DNA from: a virus
Taxonomy: Duplodnaviria > Caudoviricetes
Reading direction: 5' to 3' (one strand)
DNA: 34,796 bases
IMG/VR virus record: IMGVR_UViG_3300025018_000078
Span: 1-34,796 of that record
The position numbers and the translations under genes are program-made. Each line of letters opens with the position of its first letter. The first letter of the stretch is position 1. This document shows positions 24,976 through 34,796 of this stretch, in pieces. The notes under the pieces are model-generated. The model saw nothing but the letters and a program-made list of their open reading frames with translations, was not told the DNA's origin and made no database searches.

Positions 24976-24993
24976 TAGGTTTCAGGAATAAAA

Positions 24994-25752
24994 ATGCAAA
25001 ATGGTTTTGAACGTCACGGAATCCAGCACACCTCGCCCAGCTCGTTGAATACTTTCGCAGCCGCGCCGGATGTGTGGGTTTGTGAAAAGCTTTTTGGAAA
25101 ACGTGGGCGCATGGGCGCACCTGCATTTCGCGGCATCCTTGTTGAGAAAGCTGTGGTTAATGTCATTGCATACGGCGTAGCTGCGGATGACGCAATCGCG
25201 GAATCTGTCAAGAATTTTAACAAAGAAACTTTGTTTTCAAATTCTGACAAGATCATCAAAGAGCGTGAGGCCATCGCGCCATGCGTTGAAATGGCTTTGC
25301 AGGAACTGAAACAATACGGCACACCTGAATTCCAGAGCATCAACAAACAGGACAAGATTGAATTGGTATGCAATGGCGAAGGCTGGAAACTACCTGTCAT
25401 TGGCTACACTGATTTGCCTTTTCCAAAGCACGGTTTGATCGTTGACCTGAAAACAACACTAAAAGCACCGTCTGAAATGTCTGATCCGCACCGCAGACAA
25501 GCCGCGATATACCGCAAGGCCAGTGGTAACATGGCGGTAAAGTTTCTGTACGTCACGCCTAAAAAAGCCGTCTGGCACGAGTGCAAAGATGTGGATAGCA
25601 CGCTGGCAGAGGTAAAGCAGATACTCAACAGGCAAGAGCGTTTCTTGCGGTTGGGCGACAAAGAATTGCTGCGTGATGTTGTGCATTTTGATCCGTCCAG
25701 CTTCTATTGGTCGGGGAACGAGCAAGGACGCATGGAGGTATTCGGGGTATGA
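24994..25752 (+). CDS. PD-(D/E)XK (RecB/Cas4-like) exonuclease
   Basis: HTSPSSLN N-terminus, IGYTDL, IVDLKTT, RQAAIY motifs. Confidence 0.85.
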   Translation: MQNGFERHGIQHTSPSSLNTFAAAPDVWVCEKLFGKRGRMGAPAFRGILVEKAVVNVIAYGVAADDAIAESVKNFNKETLFSNSDKIIKEREAIAPCVEMALQELKQYGTPEFQSINKQDKIELVCNGEGWKLPVIGYTDLPFPKHGLIVDLKTTLKAPSEMSDPHRRQAAIYRKASGNMAVKFLYVTPKKAVWHECKDVDSTLAEVKQILNRQERFLRLGDKELLRDVVHFDPSSFYWSGNEQGRMEVFGV

Positions 25753-26207
25753 AAATACTTGGGGTTGATCCAGGCATGTTTGGCGCTATTGCTTATTATG
25801 ACGGTGACGAATTAATTATTTGGGATATGCCTATTTTCAAAAAAGAAAAAGGCCATGATCTAGATATTCACCGCCTTGCGCTTTACTTTGACGAAGCTGA
25901 TGCGGAACATATGTTTCTTGAAAAGACAACCGCCATGCCAAAAGTGAGTGGTAAAGCCGCCTACAGCATGGGTAAGAGCGAGGGGGCTATCCTTGGTATT
26001 GCTGCGGCAAAGGCGTTTAGCTACACGCTGACACGCCCTGCGGAGTGGAAGAAAGCCCTATCATGCCCTGCCGACAAAGACGCAGCACGGCAACGCGCCA
26101 GCCAGCTGCTGCCGCAATACGCGCACAACTGGGATTTGAAGAAACACGATGGACGTGCAGAGGCTGCATTGATTGCCTTGTACGGCTTTAATAAGATGAA
26201 GGTGTAA
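25749..26207 (+). CDS. RuvC-like Holliday junction resolvase
   Basis: MKILGVDPG..GAIA, FLE, P.EWKK, DGRAEAALIA; ATGA overlap. Confidence 0.85.
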   Translation: MKILGVDPGMFGAIAYYDGDELIIWDMPIFKKEKGHDLDIHRLALYFDEADAEHMFLEKTTAMPKVSGKAAYSMGKSEGAILGIAAAKAFSYTLTRPAEWKKALSCPADKDAARQRASQLLPQYAHNWDLKKHDGRAEAALIALYGFNKMKV

Positions 26208-26209
26208 AC

Positions 26210-26341
26210 ATGGAATTTGAAGAATGTGATTGCGTTGAGATAAAAGAGGACGAGGTTTATTCCGACAACGGCAAGCTTTGCCTGATTGGAGAATGCACCA
26301 AGTGCGGCCAGCTTTATGAGGGTGTGATTAATAATGATTAA
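26210..26341 (+). CDS. 43-aa Cys-containing (Zn-ribbon-like) protein
   Basis: Read by hand: MEFEECDC...ECTKCGQLYEG; fills the operon gap. Confidence 0.55.
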   Translation: MEFEECDCVEIKEDEVYSDNGKLCLIGECTKCGQLYEGVINND

Positions 26342-26513
26342 AAAAGATTTAGAACGTATCCGTACGCAGAAAAACTACAACAAGCAAGAAATGGCAGACT
26401 TCCTCGGCTGCGACCGCAAGACATATCGCAAGTATGAGCGTGAGCCGCAGAATTATCCAGAATGGAAGATGCAAGGCATCCTGCAACTGGCGCGAAAAGC
26501 ACCTAAAAAATAA
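26334..26513 (+). CDS. XRE-family HTH transcriptional regulator (59 aa)
   Basis: Read by hand: LERIRTQKNYNKQEMADFLGCDRKTYRKYER. Confidence 0.8.
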   Translation: MIKKDLERIRTQKNYNKQEMADFLGCDRKTYRKYEREPQNYPEWKMQGILQLARKAPKK

Positions 26514-26539
26514 TCTTCGAAATATTTTTGAATTACCCC

Positions 26540-26568
26540 TTGCAATGGGGAAAAATTCCCCGTATATT
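26540..26568 (+). promoter_or_regulatory. sigma70 promoter with palindromic operator GGGGAAAAATTCCCC
   Basis: TTGCAA-N17-TATATT; operator at 26547-26561; AAGGAG RBS downstream. Confidence 0.75.
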
Positions 26569-26595
26569 CATCCTTACAAACAAGGAGCAAACCAA

Positions 26596-26994
26596 ATGAC
26601 AGATATTAAACACACGCCGTTGCCTTGGGTAGTATCAGGAGAAGATGAATCTGACGGATTGCCGTTTATTGGCATTGAAACGCCATTTCGCGGTGAAGAT
26701 ACAAAGATAATTTCTCACGTACAGCCAAACAATGACGAAGGAGAATTTTTACAATTATGTGATGAGGATCAGGCAAACGCAGCCTTCATCGTCCGCGCAT
26801 GCAACGCCTACTACGAAAACGAAGCGATCAAGGTTGAACTGCTGGAGGCTTTGGAAGCCGTACAAAGCCAAGTAGATTGCTTCCATACAATTCTAGTTAA
26901 CGCAAAAGGCCGTGACGATAACAAGGAAACTAAGGCAGCTATATTGCAAACTGTACGTGCCGCAATCGCCCGCGCAAAAGGAGGTGCAGCATGA
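26596..26994 (+). CDS. Phage early protein (HTP.PW / ANA.FIV.A.N family)
   Basis: KHTPLPW, ANAAFIVRACN, ELLEAL, RAAIARAKG; AAGGAG RBS. Confidence 0.75.
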   Translation: MTDIKHTPLPWVVSGEDESDGLPFIGIETPFRGEDTKIISHVQPNNDEGEFLQLCDEDQANAAFIVRACNAYYENEAIKVELLEALEAVQSQVDCFHTILVNAKGRDDNKETKAAILQTVRAAIARAKGGAA

Positions 26995-27197
26995 CCAACC
27001 TAGACGCAGCAATCGCGCAGATCAACGGGATGGGGTATTACGTTCGCATGCACCAGTATCGACAAACTCTTAACGGGTACTGTGAGGCTGTATATATAGA
27101 TACAGATAAATATTTTGGATTTGCGGCAGGAGAAACCATCACCGAAGCCGTCCTAAACCTATTGGACAAACTGAAAACCGCGAAGGAGTTGGGGTGA
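26991..27197 (+). CDS. Hypothetical protein
   Basis: GGAGGT RBS, ATGA overlap. Confidence 0.65.
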   Translation: MTNLDAAIAQINGMGYYVRMHQYRQTLNGYCEAVYIDTDKYFGFAAGETITEAVLNLLDKLKTAKELG

Positions 27198-27307
27198 TGA
27201 AAGACCTAATTGCACTGGCCGTAGAGGCTTACAATCAAGTAACGTTGCCGCAATTCCTAGCCATCATGTTCCTGCTGTCCGTTTGTGTTTTTGGGGGTGC
27301 TTTGTGA
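27197..27307 (+). CDS. 36-aa membrane micro-protein
   Basis: Read by hand; TGATG coupling, hydrophobic C-terminal half. Confidence 0.5.
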   Translation: MKDLIALAVEAYNQVTLPQFLAIMFLLSVCVFGGAL

Positions 27308-27393
27308 GTTTAGTATGGACGCAAGAGTCGCCAAACTCAACTAACCAACACCGCGCCGAAGAATTAAACCGACTTTTTGACAGGATTTTACCA

Positions 27394-27627
27394 ATGAGCA
27401 ATACCACACAACATAGCTTCAACTGGAACGGCTGCGCTTGGCGCGTCGAGATTGACCAAGACTTTCAGGAAATCGTCTGGGCAGAGTGCAACGGCGAACG
27501 GTTTGACTGTGACGAAGCTGCGGAGATTATCGTGCGCTTAGGTAAGGGTGACTTTAAGATCGTTGACTTTAGCAATGCGCTGTATGATGCGGCGTTGGAG
27601 ATTGATCCGGAGGGGGTGACCGCATGA
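27394..27627 (+). CDS. Hypothetical protein (start may be GTG at 27304)
   Basis: ORF track; AGGA RBS before MSNTT. Confidence 0.55.
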   Translation: MSNTTQHSFNWNGCAWRVEIDQDFQEIVWAECNGERFDCDEAAEIIVRLGKGDFKIVDFSNALYDAALEIDPEGVTA

Positions 27628-27851
27628 CCTACCGAATCCGCTACTACCTATGCCTTGTGGCCTTACCTATCACCGCTGCGCTTTGCCTTAATATCGGGCA
27701 TACGTTGGGCTTGGAGGACATGGCACAGTCCTACGACAAAGCAAACGGCGCAAAGCTGCAACAGATCGCAGAGATACGCAGTGTGCTTTGTGAACTACCA
27801 GTCGGCGGCTCGGTTTGTATGCCGAGGTTGCCAGTTAGAAAACCGATTTAA
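27624..27851 (+). CDS. Hypothetical membrane-anchored protein
   Basis: N-terminal hydrophobic helix, ATGA overlap, PVRKP tail. Confidence 0.6.
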   Translation: MTYRIRYYLCLVALPITAALCLNIGHTLGLEDMAQSYDKANGAKLQQIAEIRSVLCELPVGGSVCMPRLPVRKPI

Positions 27852-27857
27852 GTTTAT

Positions 27858-27953
27858 GGGGTAGCGTCTGGTTCGTGACCAGAGGGGAAATTTGCCACAG
27901 TACAATCCCGCCGCTTAGCAACCGGACAGTCAGCCAATCTGACCACCCCGCCA
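27858..27953 (+). ncRNA. tRNA-like multi-arm structured element ending in GCCA
   Basis: GGGGT/ACCCC closing stem plus GCCA; arms TCTGGT/ACCAGA, GGGA..TTG/CAA-TCCC, CCG/CGG, GTCAG/CTGAC; fills the gap between the 27851 stop and the 27971 start. Confidence 0.45.
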
Positions 27954-27970
27954 GAACAAGGAGAGAGAAG

Positions 27971-28216
27971 ATGAAAAAGACATGGGCTGAAAAGGGAGAG
28001 AGCGCCTTCCCGCTTCCTGCCGTTTACACACCAGAAGGCATGAATGCTCACCGCCAAGAGTACGGAATGTCTTTGCGAGATTATTTTGCTGGACAGGCTT
28101 TGCAGGGGCTTCTATGCATGGGGTATGGCAAGGCTGATGGACCAGATGGAATAAAGTACGGTGCAGAAACGGCTTATAAGTTTGCAGACGCTATGATTGC
28201 AGAGAGGGTAAAATGA
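27971..28216 (+). CDS. Phage protein of the GM(S/T)LRDYFA family
   Basis: AFP...GMSLRDYFAGQALQG...AY.FADAMI.ER; AAGGAG RBS. Confidence 0.8.
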   Translation: MKKTWAEKGESAFPLPAVYTPEGMNAHRQEYGMSLRDYFAGQALQGLLCMGYGKADGPDGIKYGAETAYKFADAMIAERVK

Positions 28217-28656
28217 ACATGGCCACCACAACCGAAGTAATCCGCGAGGGGGATGAGCGTGAGAAGGCTTTGCGTGCGTTCGAAAATGCGATTGACGATA
28301 AGGGCATTTTGAAAACGCTGATGGGGTTAGATACCAGCTATTCAGCGCAAAACAGGCGCGCCCAAGATGCAGCGGAATGCAGCGAAAAGTTACCGTGCGG
28401 GAACGTGACGGTGAGGCACATTAAGGGGGCAGTAGAACGACTTAACGAAACATACCTTTTGAATAAAAATCTGCAAGGCTCTTTTTCAATACAAGAAATT
28501 GCTGACATTAAAACCCTCATCCGCGCCGCCACGCAGCAGCAGGAGGTGTCCGATGAGAGGTTTGAAATCATCTGCCAGATGGCGTGTATCCATACAACGG
28601 ACAGATTTAGACAATGGCTGGAAACAAACGGCTTCAAGATTGTGGGAGGGCCGTGA
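28213..28656 (+). CDS. Hypothetical protein
   Basis: ORF track, coupled overlaps at both ends. Confidence 0.6.
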   Translation: MNMATTTEVIREGDEREKALRAFENAIDDKGILKTLMGLDTSYSAQNRRAQDAAECSEKLPCGNVTVRHIKGAVERLNETYLLNKNLQGSFSIQEIADIKTLIRAATQQQEVSDERFEIICQMACIHTTDRFRQWLETNGFKIVGGP

Positions 28657-29516
28657 TGAATATTGTTGTATGGGTATCTGCGGGAGCCGCCAACGCGGCT
28701 GCTTTAAAAAAGACAGTTGATTTATATGGTGATAAGGCGAACATCCGCGCCGTTTATAATCCGGTCAAGGAAGAGCACAAAGACAATCTGCGCTTTTTGA
28801 AGGACGTAGAAAAATGGTGCGGCGTTGAAATAGAGATAGCTAAAAACCGCTCGTTTCCAACGAATAGCGCAATTAAGGTTTGGCGCAAGCGTGGCTACAT
28901 GTCGGGTATCTATGGCGCACCATGCACGGAGAATTTAAAAAAAGAAGCCCGTCGTCAATGGGAAGATGTGAACGCGTATTTTGCTAATACCTGCTACAAC
29001 GTGTTCGGTTTTACCGTCGGAGAAGAAACCCGCCATACCGAGCGCGTCAAAGACGGGATGAAAATGCTTCCCGTTCTTATTTCGGAAGGTATGACGAAAG
29101 ACGACTGTTTTAAATTTGTAAAAGATGCAGGGGTCAATCTGCCTGCAATATATAGCATTTCGTCGCCATTTGGCACTGGATTCCCTAATGCAAACTGCAT
29201 TGGATGCGTAAAGGCGACCAGCGCCACCTATTGGAATCATGTGCGGCACACATTCCCCGCTCGGTTTTAATTCCTTGCAAAGTTGTCTCGATTTTTGGGC
29301 GCGAGACTGGTCAGATGCCACCCAAAATATTTACCGTTTTATAAACTTAGTGACGGAAGGTGGACCGACACCCGTGACGGTTCGCAGCCGTATAACGAAA
29401 AAGGAAAGTTTGAAAGTCCTAGGATTTTTCTTGATGAATTACCGCCAGATGCGCGTGGACGTTCAATGAAAACAATGAAAATCGAATGTGGCATTAGCTG
29501 CGGAAGGGATGATTGA
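28656..29516 (+). pseudogene. PAPS-reductase-like (adenine nucleotide alpha-hydrolase) gene interrupted by an in-frame TAA at 29268-29270
   Basis: WVSAGAANA PP-loop-like motif, GAPCT..LKK, GFT..E..R, NANCIGCVK; the same frame continues after the TAA with LGARLVR..RIFLDELPP..ECGISC. Confidence 0.75.
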
Positions 29517-29743
29517 AAATGTCATGTTATTGCGGAGACTGCCAAAAATGCGGCCATAAGTGCGGCTTTTGCGGGGCAAATTATGACGGATACTTTCCGA
29601 ATGATAAACCTTCTTGCGATTGTGCGGAAAAATATAAAGCACAGAAATCTAAACAAAAAATGAATGAGAATTTATTAGATAAAATAGAAGTATGGAGTCC
29701 AATTTTACCGTGGGATACCAGAACAGAACAGAAGGAATTATAA
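29513..29743 (+). CDS. Cys-rich small protein
   Basis: Eight Cys in CxC/CxxC patterns; overlap with the upstream stop. Confidence 0.55.
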   Translation: MKMSCYCGDCQKCGHKCGFCGANYDGYFPNDKPSCDCAEKYKAQKSKQKMNENLLDKIEVWSPILPWDTRTEQKEL

Positions 29744-29745
29744 CA

Positions 29746-30069
29746 ATGACAACCCCCACCCCCGACCAGTGCCGCGAGAATGCACTATATGCGTTAACTC
29801 GACTTTCTCATGGATACCCATACGAAGATCCAAACGCATCTTTTGATAACTCGCTGGACATAGAGACAGTACAAGCCGCCATTCAATCACGCCCCACGGA
29901 GGAGCAAGCATGCGAAACCTGCAAGGACGATCCAGCAACATGCGCTATGGTTACGTCACTGCGTCACTGTGAGGCCGCGAACAGGGAGCAACCCGCTGGC
30001 GATAGGCGGGAGGCTTTGGACAGCCTTACAACAATCGCCACGCTCGACAAGATAATGGAGGGGCAGTGA
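29746..30069 (+). CDS. Hypothetical protein
   Basis: AAGGA RBS before MTTPTP; CxxC motif. Confidence 0.55.
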   Translation: MTTPTPDQCRENALYALTRLSHGYPYEDPNASFDNSLDIETVQAAIQSRPTEEQACETCKDDPATCAMVTSLRHCEAANREQPAGDRREALDSLTTIATLDKIMEGQ

Positions 30070-30221
30070 TGGAGTATATTTTAATCGTATATATATATAG
30101 TGCCAAAACTAGATGTATTGAAATGCAGGAAATATCTACAAAAGAACAATGCCTGTTTATTGCCGCCGAAATAGAGAAAGTAGCAGGCTATGGTGTAAAA
30201 ACCATGTGTTACCCCAAATGA
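30069..30221 (+). CDS. 50-aa phage protein (MEYILIVY...QC..A...CYPK)
   Basis: Read by hand; GGAGGG RBS, TGATG coupling. Confidence 0.6.
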   Translation: MEYILIVYIYSAKTRCIEMQEISTKEQCLFIAAEIEKVAGYGVKTMCYPK

Positions 30222-30262
30222 CCCGCCCCAACAAATCAAAATGGCGCAGGCTGAAAAAGGGC

Positions 30263-30291
30263 TTGTGTTTATAAAATACCTACGCTATAAA
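30263..30291 (+). promoter_or_regulatory. sigma70-like promoter
   Basis: TTGTGT-N17-TATAAA; predicted start near 30298. Confidence 0.55.
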
Positions 30292-30297
30292 TAACCC

Positions 30298-30395
30298 AAC
30301 AAGAGAACAGGGATGATCTCACGCAATAGATCGAAGCAAATACGGCGCAACCCCACCCGCGCAAGTCTGTCCGGCCTTCATCCCGCCGTCTTGTT
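30298..30395 (+). ncRNA. Structured leader/sRNA motif, copy 1
   Basis: AACAAGA/TCTTGTT, GGGAT/ATCCC, GCGC/GCGC, CGGC/GCCG pairings; homologous to 34321-34398. Confidence 0.7.
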
Positions 30396-30403
30396 TGTAA
30401 CAC

Positions 30404-30442
30404 GCCGACCCCGTTTGACAGGCGCGGGGCGGTATTAATTTT
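30404..30442 (+). terminator. Terminator-like bulged hairpin after motif copy 1
   Basis: GCCG-A-CCCCG...CGGGG-CGGT followed by ATTAATTTT, then AGGAG RBS. Confidence 0.5.
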
Positions 30443-30454
30443 AGGAGATTTGGG

Positions 30455-30748
30455 ATGAAAAAGATATACAAGTATGTACTTGATTACAGTCGAATGGGAT
30501 ATGTGGATGGACTGTTCATTGCGGAAGAATCTGAAATTCAGGCAGCAATGGGAAAGACAATATACTTCGGAGAAATCCTTGGTAAGTATTCGGAAGTAAT
30601 CGACGATCTAACAGAGGATAGCTTGACTGTTCTTTCTGACAATCAGGACTTTATTGCTAAGTTTATCGAAGTGATGGGCGATGGAACAATTTCTGGATAT
30701 AACCCGCTTGACTATATTCAGGACGAAGACGAAGATGAGGACGAATAA
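30455..30748 (+). CDS. Acidic phage hypothetical protein
   Basis: RMG.V.GLFIA, YFGEILGK.SE, SGYNPLDY motifs; AGGAG RBS. Confidence 0.75.
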   Translation: MKKIYKYVLDYSRMGYVDGLFIAEESEIQAAMGKTIYFGEILGKYSEVIDDLTEDSLTVLSDNQDFIAKFIEVMGDGTISGYNPLDYIQDEDEDEDE

Positions 30749-30882
30749 AATTAACCCCTGATTTATCAACACTCAAACCAACGAAAGGCCTTGAGATTGT
30801 TCAGATAGAATATATGAGACAGGGGATTAACGGGGCGGCTGCATCTTCGGGTGCGGTCGTCCTGATTAACAAGGGATGAGAT

Positions 30883-31032
30883 ATGACCAACGACTACAAA
30901 GAAGAAGACAAACCAAAGCGCGAGCCAGTAAAGCGAAACTGCCTTGTATGCGAAAAGCCTTTTATAGCCGATGGTCGGTTTATCAGGCTGTGCGATTTGC
31001 ACAGGAAAGATGTTTATGATGGGGGGTGTTGA
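30883..31032 (+). CDS. 49-aa Zn-finger-like protein (RNCLVCEKPF...RLCDLH)
   Basis: Read by hand; stop abuts the next GTG start. Confidence 0.65.
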   Translation: MTNDYKEEDKPKREPVKRNCLVCEKPFIADGRFIRLCDLHRKDVYDGGC

Positions 31033-31242
31033 GTGACCGACCTAACCAAAGAAAATCTGGACGCGATCATGGAGGCTTATGATCGAGGATTAATCACACC
31101 AACAGACAATTACAGACTGGCAAAACGCAATGGCGAGATTGTATTGCAGCGGCTAATTAACCATAGCAATGGCAAAGACTGGCCAGAGCAAAAATGGGAA
31201 GATTGCGAAACGGTGGTTTTGGAGGATAAAGATAATGCTTAA
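31033..31242 (+). CDS. Hypothetical protein
   Basis: VLQ...W.D..TV motif; overlaps the rtcB start. Confidence 0.6.
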   Translation: MTDLTKENLDAIMEAYDRGLITPTDNYRLAKRNGEIVLQRLINHSNGKDWPEQKWEDCETVVLEDKDNA

Positions 31243-32410
31243 AGTTATTGGACAACATGACGATGCGACAATTGCGCAGGCCAACAATGTCCTTGCAAAA
31301 GGTGCTGACAGGTTCATCCTTTGTGCGGATGGACACCTTGGATACGGCCACCCTATCGGCGGTGTAGCCGCCTACAAAGACCGCATTTCCATTTCAGGTG
31401 TTGGCTTTGATATTGCCTGTGGAAACATGGCTGTTAAGCTTCCAGTAAAGATTAAAGAAATCAAGGGCAGCCTTCAATCAATCGGGGAGCAGATCGCAAC
31501 CCGTATTTCCTTTGGTGTGGGTAGAACAAACGCTGAAAAGGTTGAGGCTGAATTTTTGGATACGGAAGCAAACTGGAACAATGAAGCCTTATCAGGACTT
31601 AAAGACCTTGCCGCCACGCAGCTTGGAACGGTTGGCAGCGGAAACCATTACGTTGATGTTTTCCATGATGAGGACGGATTTGTCTGGATCGGAGTTCACT
31701 TCGGCTCTCGTGGACTTGGACACAAGGCAACAACACATTTCCTTAAAGCTATGGGGGCAAAAGACGGTATTAACTCTGATCCTTGCATTGTTGACTTAAA
31801 CAGTGACGTAGGACAGAACTATCTGGAAGCTATGACGCTTGGCGGCAAGTACGCCTATGCTGGCCGTGAATGGGTATGCAAGACCGTTGCGGAAATCATC
31901 ACTGGTAAAGATGAATACCTTGATGAAGTCCACAATCACCACAACTTTGCCTTTCTTGAGGAACATGACGGAGAGACATACTATGTTGTTCGCAAGGGGG
32001 CAACCCCTGCATTTCCTAATCAGCGTTGTTTTGTCGGCGGTTCTATGGGCGATATGTCTGTAATCCTTGAGGGGATGGACACGCCAGCAGCGAAAGAGAA
32101 TCTTTATTCGACGGTTCACGGCGCGGGGCGTGTACTTTCACGCACGGCAGCGGCGGGGGAAAGCAAATGGATTGGCGGCAAAAAGGTGCGTGTTTCGGAA
32201 GGTTTGGTAAATGAGGACGCTATGCGTTCAAAGATGTCAGATAAAGGAATCCTGCTTTTTGGCGCTGGGGCTGACGAAGCACCTGAATGCTATAAAAACA
32301 TTGAGGAAGTTCTTGGTTTTCACAGTGACAGCGTAGCTATTAAACACAGACTTACACCTGTGATTGTTGCAATGGCTGGCGCAAACGAGTATGATCCTTA
32401 CAAGGATTAA
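31235..32410 (+). CDS. rtcB: RtcB RNA 2',3'-cyclic-phosphate/3'-phosphate:5'-OH ligase
   Basis: DGH.GYG.PIGG, VGFDIACG, LGT.GSGNHY, H.GSRG.G, HN, RKGAT, GSMG, HGAGR, DEAP..YK; GGAGG RBS before ATG at 31235. Confidence 0.95.
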   Translation: MLKVIGQHDDATIAQANNVLAKGADRFILCADGHLGYGHPIGGVAAYKDRISISGVGFDIACGNMAVKLPVKIKEIKGSLQSIGEQIATRISFGVGRTNAEKVEAEFLDTEANWNNEALSGLKDLAATQLGTVGSGNHYVDVFHDEDGFVWIGVHFGSRGLGHKATTHFLKAMGAKDGINSDPCIVDLNSDVGQNYLEAMTLGGKYAYAGREWVCKTVAEIITGKDEYLDEVHNHHNFAFLEEHDGETYYVVRKGATPAFPNQRCFVGGSMGDMSVILEGMDTPAAKENLYSTVHGAGRVLSRTAAAGESKWIGGKKVRVSEGLVNEDAMRSKMSDKGILLFGAGADEAPECYKNIEEVLGFHSDSVAIKHRLTPVIVAMAGANEYDPYKD

Positions 32411-32416
32411 ATAGTG

Positions 32417-32495
32417 CGGAGAGTGGGGAAGTCAGGCCGTTCCCGTTGCTTTTGGAAAGCAAAGCTCGTAGGTTCAAATCCTACCTCTCCGACCA
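32417..32495 (+). tRNA. tRNA-Pro(UGG) with encoded CCA
   Basis: CGGAGAG/CTCTCCG acceptor (C1-G72, A73), GGGA/TCCC D stem, TTGCT/AGCAA anticodon stem with loop TT-TGG-AA, GTAGG-TTCAAAT-CCTAC T arm. Confidence 0.93.
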
Positions 32496-32795
32496 CTAAT
32501 CCTCCTCCCCCTCATCATCCTCAAAATCCGCATAGCCGATAAGATCATCCTTGATCTCGTCGCGCAAATCTTCCAGCGTCAGACAGGCTAGTGCGGAATG
32601 GTACGGCGTGTCAGGAAGAAAGCCCCAATCCGTAAAATCGTTCTCGTCAATCGCCAGAATGAACACGGATTTAAACCGACCGTCTTTTAGAGCCTTTGCC
32701 CAACGCCGCATGAATTGCTGCACCTGTTCACCTTCCGGCGTTTCGATGCGCTCTATGGGCTTGCGGGTTTGTATATCAAGGACGTTGTCGGTCAT
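32496..32795 (-). CDS. Hypothetical acidic-tailed protein
   Basis: MTDNVL start with ATGA overlap to the upstream gene. Confidence 0.65.
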   Translation of the reverse strand: MTDNVLDIQTRKPIERIETPEGEQVQQFMRRWAKALKDGRFKSVFILAIDENDFTDWGFLPDTPYHSALACLTLEDLRDEIKDDLIGYADFEDDEGEED

Positions 32796-34284: not shown

Positions 34285-34313
34285 TTGACACTTCCACGTT
34301 CATGCCCTAATAT
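34285..34313 (+). promoter_or_regulatory. sigma70 promoter
   Basis: TTGACA-N17-TAATAT; predicted start near 34320. Confidence 0.75.
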
Positions 34314-34320
34314 CCATCAA

Positions 34321-34398
34321 ATCAAGGGTAGGGATGCCTCACAAAATTCAAACTAGCGCATGTGCGCGAGTATATCCGGTTTATCCCACCGCCTTGAT
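34321..34398 (+). ncRNA. Structured leader/sRNA motif, copy 2
   Basis: ATCAAGG/CCTTGAT, GGGAT/ATCCC, GCGC/GCGC, CGGT/ACCG pairings; homologous to 30298-30395. Confidence 0.7.
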
Positions 34399-34403
34399 AT
34401 GCC

Positions 34404-34438
34404 TCCAGTCCGTTCTGATATGCGGCGGCTGGATTTTT
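34404..34438 (+). terminator. Terminator-like bulged hairpin after motif copy 2
   Basis: TCCAGTC..GGCTGGA stem followed by TTTTT, then RBS. Confidence 0.6.
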
Positions 34439-34456
34439 AAGGAAAGGGATAGACTA

Positions 34457-34796
34457 ATGACCGAAGCAGAAAAGATTATTGATAGCTTGAAAGAGGTTTT
34501 CGCAATCGCAAAAACAGGTTTTGACGATTTTAAAAAGGATGCGAAAGAGATTGCCAGCGGTTACTACAGCAAGGCAGCGTCCAGCGGTGACTACAGCAAG
34601 GCAGCGTCCAGCGGTTACTACAGCAAGGCAGCGTCCAGCGGTGACAGCAGCACGGCAGCGTCCAGCGGTTACTACAGCAAGGCAGCGTCCAGCGGTGACT
34701 ACAGCAAGGCAGCGTCCAGCGGTTACTACAGCAAGGCAGCGTCCAGCGGTAACAACAGCACGGCAGCGTCCAGCGGTAACAACAGCACGGCAGCGT
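34457..34796 (+). CDS. N-terminal part of a 9-aa-repeat (AASSG[YDN][YNS]S[KT]) phage protein; continues across the genome junction into 2..712
   Basis: ATG at 34457 after AAGGAAAGGG RBS; reads MTEAEKIIDSLKEVFAIAKTGFDDFKKDAKEIASGYYSKAASSGDYSK... and stays open to the window end; missing from the ORF track because it has no stop in the window. Confidence 0.85.
   Translation, partial: MTEAEKIIDSLKEVFAIAKTGFDDFKKDAKEIASGYYSKAASSGDYSKAASSGYYSKAASSGDSSTAASSGYYSKAASSGDYSKAASSGYYSKAASSGNNSTAASSGNNSTAA
34554..34796 (+). repeat. 27-bp coding tandem repeat, about 9 units; the last 35 nt equal window bases 1-35 (terminal overlap, circular assembly)
   Basis: Direct comparison: ggcagcgtccagcggtaacaacagcacggcagcgt at both 1-35 and 34762-34796. 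Confidence 0.95.

Follow-up and report, generated by a model that had tools for sequence, protein, structure and literature searches.

Two short, similar stretches lie just behind promoter-like sites in the genome of a small virus, raising the question of whether they encode a structured RNA and whether such an RNA controls the gene that follows. The window analysed here is the whole virus record, 34,796 bp long, which carries direct terminal repeats (35-bp repeat) and is rated complete. The gene content comprises a podophage-type head, a portal, a terminase, a primase-helicase, lysis genes, the RNA ligase RtcB and a tRNA-Pro. An alphaproteobacterial host seems probable because the nearest named capsid is that of a Bradyrhizobium phage (63.8%) and a Hyphomicrobiaceae genome is the named source of one close RtcB. 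The scanned proteins of the complete genome included no match to an integrase or antirepressor.

Two copies in the window and their homologues

The motif occurs twice in the window, with ~140 nt per copy, a promoter-like site upstream and a terminator-like hairpin included; all features given below are on the plus strand unless stated. Copy 1 follows a likely sigma70-type promoter of weak consensus, TTGTGT-17-TATAAA (30263..30291), found in the same register in 4/4 copies, and its body covers 30298..30395. The terminator-like hairpin of copy 1 (30404..30442, stem 30404-30433) ends in a weak U tail, with the poor tract ATTAATTTT, and is followed at 30443..30459 by the Shine-Dalgarno sequence AGGAG and by GGGATGAA across the start codon (30455). 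Copy 2 has a better promoter, TTGACA-17-TAATAT (10/12; 34285..34313), a body at 34321..34398, a terminator-like hairpin at 34404..34438 with a U5 tail, and a ribosome-binding region at 34439..34459 upstream of and across an ATG at 34457. A first-pass annotation of the letters had placed a -10 box with 17-nt spacing before each copy; the promoter scan called that of copy 2, while the promoters of copy 1 and of the homologue L146 were not called. All four sequences of the motif nevertheless carry a TTG ~35 nt before the closing stem and a TA 23 nt later (TTG-N20-TA). The annotated downstream hairpins and ribosome-binding sites are likewise present, although neither window hairpin was called a terminator by a simple scan. 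The terminator-like hairpin belongs to the motif, being conserved and paired with it, so that the element exceeds the extent first proposed and runs from 30298 to 30442 and from 34321 to 34438. A promoter-like site on the minus strand (34271-34243) diverges from the promoter of copy 2, and contigs from four DNA runs showed the motif without variants.

The gene settings of the two copies differ. Copy 1 precedes a gene for a 97-aa acidic viral protein (30455..30748; phrog_5848, no assigned function), and rtcB and tRNA-Pro(TGG) (31235..32495) lie distally in the same gene run. It had been described as heading an rtcB-tRNA cluster; this does not hold well, as copy 1 sits three ORFs and ~0.8 kb upstream of rtcB, the description fits one of four copies, and no rtcB or tRNA was seen near the others. 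The RtcB ligase followed directly by tRNA-Pro(TGG) at 31235-32495 in a 35-kb phage is a possible counter-defence pair, and RtcB relatives of 70-79% identity are found, many on contigs of 30-45 kb. Directly after the 97-aa gene, 30746-30875 (plus strand) is a second structured intergenic stretch, in which a long stem with interruptions (z -3.2) is joined by a UUCG hairpin of very high stability (z -6.3) that lacks a U tract; a GGGATGA ribosome-binding site comes next. The stretch may be a processing site or a second RNA element. Copy 2 precedes a single gene (34457..34796), which crosses the 35-bp terminal repeat to position 712, with a strong terminator behind it that faces the lysis genes. 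Its product of ~338 aa (34457-34796 and 1-712) has SAASSG-type repeats and a viral C-terminal domain and thus spans the genome ends; the repeat number may reflect assembly.

Taken by themselves, the two window copies are only marginally similar, with a local-alignment score of 30 compared with a mean of 25.2 (sd 2.1, max 31) for 200 shuffles, and single-sequence fold z-scores of -1.7 and -2.1. The case that the motif is real comes from independent homologues with high scores. A pattern scan of metagenomes, with the stretches scored by a covariance model of the kind that the first-pass annotation had suggested, gave two: three loci hold two new sequences, L135 and L145 sharing one and L146 carrying the other, which score 47.2 and 44.9 bits (E ~1e-11 and ~1e-10) in a model trained on the two window copies only. 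In the metagenome pattern scan of 39 stretches, 2 were the window's own contig and 33 were chance; a further locus, L130, is an identical 1,283-bp piece of the window. The neighbours of the homologues are phage-type, one lying before a DUF6948 gene and after a run of genes with a Lar-domain gene, the other after ERF and YqaJ genes. There are thus four distinct sequences with pairwise identities from 66/107 to 107/129 aligned columns, and the downstream genes encode unrelated proteins without assigned function (phrog_5848, the repeat protein and DUF6948). Copy 1 and L135 also share ~80 bp upstream (window 30218-30294; L135 611-692), beginning at an ATG, overlapping the preceding stop codon, that opens a short Lys/Arg-rich ORF overlapping the promoter; the window has a 1-nt indel relative to L135 just upstream of the -35.

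The motif had not been recognised as a named family, and this stands: Rfam 15 gave no family over the motif at the gathering threshold or at E up to 10, the only match in the window being tRNA-Pro, with best scores over the window motif of 11-15 bits against thresholds of 40-70, and no match over the L135 and L146 motifs. Elsewhere the motif is rare. Viral pattern scans returned 3, 0, 119 (of ~150), 2 and 119 (of ~130) stretches, none a true copy by inspection or model. Among capsid-related viral records the motif was found in 0/50 with the first model, and the third model gave two weak matches (13.9 and 10.9 bits) without the motif blocks. Around DUF6948, 0/80 loci and 0/48 records held it under a somewhat less sensitive model, whose lower terminator pairs are one column off and which also served for the closest relative; a 12.9-bit match in that relative lies antisense over coding sequence and was not counted. 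Four loci of the 97-aa protein held no copy, and all matches from blastn against phages and plasmids were short and attributable to chance. A genome-collection scan with CTCAC fixed yielded 20 matches, all chance, and prokaryotic genomes are poorly searched because this sole scan fixed a block later found not to be conserved. The motif was seen in 0/201 Pseudomonadota genomes, a sample in which alphaproteobacteria may be scarce, as GcrA was present in 0/10 of those tested. Two tRNA-Ser-like genes (L142 87-114; L163 1335-1362) have a 16-nt run in common with the motif core, spanning the tRNA-Ser variable arm into the T arm, and were treated as chance. No description of the motif was found in the literature; four supplementary files of PMC10690425 held no match, and its alignment archives may list the motif.

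Predicted fold of the body and its pairing with downstream sequence

The four sequences share AGGGAU, a GCGC hairpin, RAGUMURUCCGGY, AUCCC, RCCG and the downstream hairpin with the loop GAYAKGC, and three of the four have AUCGAAGCAA in common. The ordered blocks of the first-pass annotation are present at both places in the window; among the homologues, CTCAC is absent from L135 and L146, so that it is not conserved among the four sequences, and CAAA is not kept as a block. The closing stem P1 (30298-30304/30389-30395 and 34321-34327/34392-34398) differs in sequence and is paired in 4/4. It holds two of the three compensatory changes described earlier (AACAAGA/TCTTGTT vs ATCAAGG/CCTTGAT), the third being in the helix CGGC/GCCG vs CGGT/ACCG (30372-30375/30385-30388 and 34377-34380/34388-34391), and all three are in the sequence, as are the GCGC hairpins (30345-30348/30359-30362 and 34356-34367). 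Over five helices, 97.2% of 108 cells are paired and 7/27 pairs are compensated; 0/500 shuffles do as well, and slid controls are paired at 32-47%. The comparison ignores relatedness and uses a structure derived from the same four sequences, and copy 2 by itself accounts for 5 of the 7 compensated pairs. The GCGC, CGGY/RCCG and terminator helices are also found independently by RNAalifold, and G-U pairs favour the plus strand as the RNA. A leader peptide was considered and rejected, since the reading frame that begins at the AUG of AGGGAUG differs between copy 1 and L135, and L146 lacks this AUG.

Within this body, the 5' GGGAU (30310-30314; 34331-34335) is complementary to AUCCC (30380-30384; 34383-34387) in the loop of the CGGY/RCCG hairpin, as the first reading had noted. 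The five core pairs of this helix, P2, are invariant across the four sequences, and the extensions match within each copy (GGGAUGA/UCAUCCC, GGGAUG/UAUCCC, CAGGGAUG/UAUCCCUG and GGGAUAAGG/UCUUAUCCC). P2 and the CGGY/RCCG helix would form a pseudoknot on a continuous 3' strand. The alternative pairing of GGATG with TRTCC, proposed as a two-state switch, is available in sequence, but that state lies 6-9 kcal/mol above the default fold. Taken together, the comparison supports a conserved, covarying and probably pseudoknotted RNA at likely transcription starts, without an Rfam family.

Two further pairings were missed by the first reading. The terminator loop GAYAKGC (GACAGGC, 30417-30423; GATATGC, 34417-34423) is complementary in 4/4 to a 7-nt strand of the body, GUMURUC (GTCTGTC, 30365-30371; GTATATC, 34370-34376), the pairs being GUCUGUC/GACAGGC in copy 1 and L146, GUCUAUC/GAUAGGC in L135 and GUAUAUC/GAUAUGC in copy 2. 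All 28/28 cells are paired and 2/7 pairs are compensated, these being the sole variable columns on either side, a score reached by 16/500 shuffles; a downstream loop complement was present in 10/119 chance pattern matches and in 4/4 true copies. RNAalifold leaves a 9-nt terminator loop consisting of two pyrimidines and the seven pairing bases, a geometry that would allow this second pseudoknot with the stem closed. Extended to 13 bp, the antiterminator duplex has -13 to -17 kcal/mol, close to the energy of each hairpin, yet 51, 374, 401 and 147 of 1000 shuffled bodies do as well, and therefore only the 7-bp core is relied on. Forcing the loop pairing in nested models, which cannot score pseudoknots, costs 6-17 kcal/mol, and the nearest-neighbour default fold is the terminated form. 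In copy 2, a second CCG-N4-GATATGC (34389-34402) overlaps the 3' strand of the closing stem and duplicates the terminator-loop partner. The -10 region could also pair over 9-12 bp with the conserved TTGTA linker (30286-30294 with 30392-30400; L135 681-692), which would need read-through transcripts and could compete with the closing stem.

The second of these pairings involves the AUCCC strand, which can pair with a GGGAU at the ribosome-binding site or start codon after the hairpin over 9, 10 and 8 bp in copy 1, copy 2 and L135, respectively, making this partner as long as or longer than the 5' one (7, 6 and 8 bp). In copy 1, the start-codon sequence is complementary to TTCATCCC of the body, and in copy 2, GGGATAGAC (34446-34454) is complementary to GTTTATCCC. 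For the same three sequences, 4, 0 and 6 of 47 other ribosome-binding regions in the window and 36, 4 and 19 of 1000 shuffles do as well, and GGGAT occurs near 2/47 other window starts and 5/144 starts in related phages. L146 shows no such partner (46/47 do as well) in the ~40 nt between the hairpin and the end of its contig, and it carries two 5' GGGAU instead. In three of four copies the ribosome-binding site and start lie within ~25 nt of the hairpin, a distance in which a further promoter would not obviously fit. Outside the motif body, GGGATGA occurs on the plus strand at 28250, 29055, 29506, 30452 and 30873, three of these at or just before gene starts.

A candidate conditional terminator and its rivals

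The motif is a predicted 5' transcript leader, with transcription probably starting at the promoter-like sites, termination at the hairpin and two states. In the reading tentatively favoured here, held at slightly below an even chance, the conserved leader would be a cis-acting conditional terminator with coupled control of translation of the next gene; among the options listed in the first-pass annotation, riboswitch or attenuator fits best. In the ON state, GGGAU would hold AUCCC and leave GUMURUC free to capture the nascent terminator loop before the 3' strand of the stem emerges, which would block or delay closure of the hairpin and keep the ribosome-binding site accessible. Without stabilisation of the compact fold, in the OFF state, the hairpin would close and transcription would stop; in any read-through RNA, AUCCC could then pair with GGGAU at the ribosome-binding or start site. 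Because nearest-neighbour folding favours the terminated form, a stabilising factor would be needed for the ON state. A small-molecule ligand is predicted as its likeliest trigger, though unlikely in its own right, followed by a protein as somewhat less probable and then by an RNA in trans or folding kinetics alone; the unrelated downstream genes give no clue to a ligand.

The most serious competitor, unlikely but clearly ahead of the remaining ones, is a stand-alone small RNA gene of ~140 nt with its own promoter and terminator, the terminal hairpin docking on the body. Such an RNA would act in trans, either as a protein decoy or as an antisense RNA whose C-rich AUCCC loop targets ribosome-binding sites, with the downstream genes reached by leaky read-through, and could coexist with a cis role. 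The promoter-like site and hairpin in 4/4 copies fit it, as do the unrelated gene contexts, resembling a mobile cassette, and a default fold in the terminated form; since the 7-bp pairing with the loop could form while the stem is closed, it may simply lock a finished small RNA. All five other genomic GGGATGA sites, complementary to the UCAUCCC of copy 1, are on the sense strand within 28250-30873, but this clustering was noticed post hoc and is not reproduced in L145 or L146. Each body moreover pairs best with its own adjacent ribosome-binding region among the four, and copy 2 heads a single gene without another obvious promoter, both of which speak against a stand-alone RNA. Less can be said for a promoter-terminator cassette that was duplicated and whose RNA does nothing more than terminate constitutively, a reading that has a very slight chance: while it would account for the marginal similarity of the window copies and for the shared descent of copy 1 and L135 over ~80 bp upstream, it appears already largely refuted by the compensated pairs of the loop pairing and the CGGY/RCCG helix and by a core kept in four gene contexts.

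To our knowledge, few cases are known in which RNA alone controls the early genes of a phage, namely the put RNAs and the C4/CI RNAs. P1 C4 and P4 CI are leader RNAs of phages, short and structured, in which the closing stem is interrupted and single strands pair with the leader downstream; by way of bipartite targets that are repeated, they control an antirepressor operon in a temperate phage. The motif shares the short structured leader, the interrupted closing stem and strands pairing downstream, and a related immunity RNA could be imagined in which the terminated leader acts in trans to block the loop pairing, forces termination and confers copy-specific exclusion. The copies would be orthogonal, as cognate body-terminator duplexes are stronger than cross-copy ones (-16.2 vs -12.6 kcal/mol for copy 1; -14.1 vs -9.7 kcal/mol for copy 2). 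Even so, this idea is improbable: Rfam gives no C4 match, no integrase or antirepressor is found among the scanned proteins, P1 begins at the predicted +1, and a second bipartite target at a gene start was looked for and none was seen. Processing from a longer leader is a further trait of C4 and CI RNAs, which the cited source lists as RNase P substrates (PMC5499578). Hardly more than a slender chance is left for a new self-cleaving ribozyme, its products handled by the phage RtcB, another option of the first reading that is weakened here despite the double pseudoknot, the highly conserved core and rtcB downstream of copy 1. HDV-like and theta ribozymes have a nested double pseudoknot in the HDV strand order and abut a tRNA. 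Here the strand order misfits that fold, there is no room for P3/P1.1 between CGG and AUCCC, the tRNA is 2 kb from copy 1, rtcB is seen near only one of four copies, Rfam matches no ribozyme, and there would be no leader to cut because P1 begins at the predicted +1. Finally, an antiterminator of the put kind, also suggested at first, would act processively and without other factors, binding RNA polymerase and suppressing terminators far away; this is doubtful and only a shade more probable than the immunity RNA. The put RNA of HK022 binds the beta-prime zinc-binding domain of the polymerase. As in HK022 with putL and putR, as far as the cited account describes them (PMC9378689), the genome carries two related copies, and an early-type promoter directly precedes each, that of copy 1 being weak in consensus. 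According to the same account, put RNA consists of two hairpins of ~70 nt acting up to 10 kb away, whereas the motif is a closed multi-helix RNA of ~140 nt that includes its own terminator. There would also be little for it to suppress, as the unit of copy 2 is one gene with a strong terminator behind it and 24990-32600 contains only three terminator candidates, all weak, in a scan for Rho-independent sites.

Relation to known attenuators and significance

The closest counterpart of the proposed conditional terminator is the guanidine-IV riboswitch (GGAM-1/mepA motif). In the cited descriptions of that riboswitch (PMC7736828, PMC11611296), an upstream RNA pairs with the loop of an intrinsic terminator during transcription, which is proposed to hinder its closure; the terminator stem is part of the ligand-bound fold, and read-through is promoted by a kissing loop that has only a narrow transcription window in which to form. 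The likeness lies in the pairing of upstream RNA with a terminator loop, predicted here with 7 bp in 4/4. Differences are that the partner is a junction strand in a multi-helix body with a further pseudoknot, instead of the loop of a simple 5' hairpin as there described, that the ribosome-binding site is paired in addition, and that the motif precedes unrelated phage genes and not sugE or mepA. Rfam has no match over the motif, which is set apart from guanidine-IV by its described architecture and gene context. The motif is best read as built like a guanidine-IV riboswitch, probably without being a member. A tertiary structure beside an intrinsic terminator can also suppress termination in a 'tug-of-war', as reported for ZTP-type riboswitches (PMC13307975); here it is the terminator loop itself that would pair, and Rfam shows no ZTP aptamer match. 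Overall, the motif would seem to work like a terminator-loop pseudoknot attenuator, yet appears to fall outside every tested family.

The rarity of the motif, with four sequences, and the absence of a gene clue to the trigger limit its significance. The element is nevertheless short, has natural compensatory variants at hand and suits routine transcription and probing assays. A terminator-loop pseudoknot in the uncommon geometry of guanidine-IV, combined with pairing at the ribosome-binding site, would be a second natural example of this mechanism, and if driven by a ligand it would be a riboswitch class native to phages. In its fullest form, which is rather unlikely, a double-pseudoknot aptamer would sense a host metabolite or defence signal, capture the terminator loop and free the ribosome-binding site. 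If this were true, the condition of the infected cell would turn on early accessory genes, including those for the RtcB ligase and tRNA-Pro behind copy 1, and the two copies would carry orthogonal loop codes.
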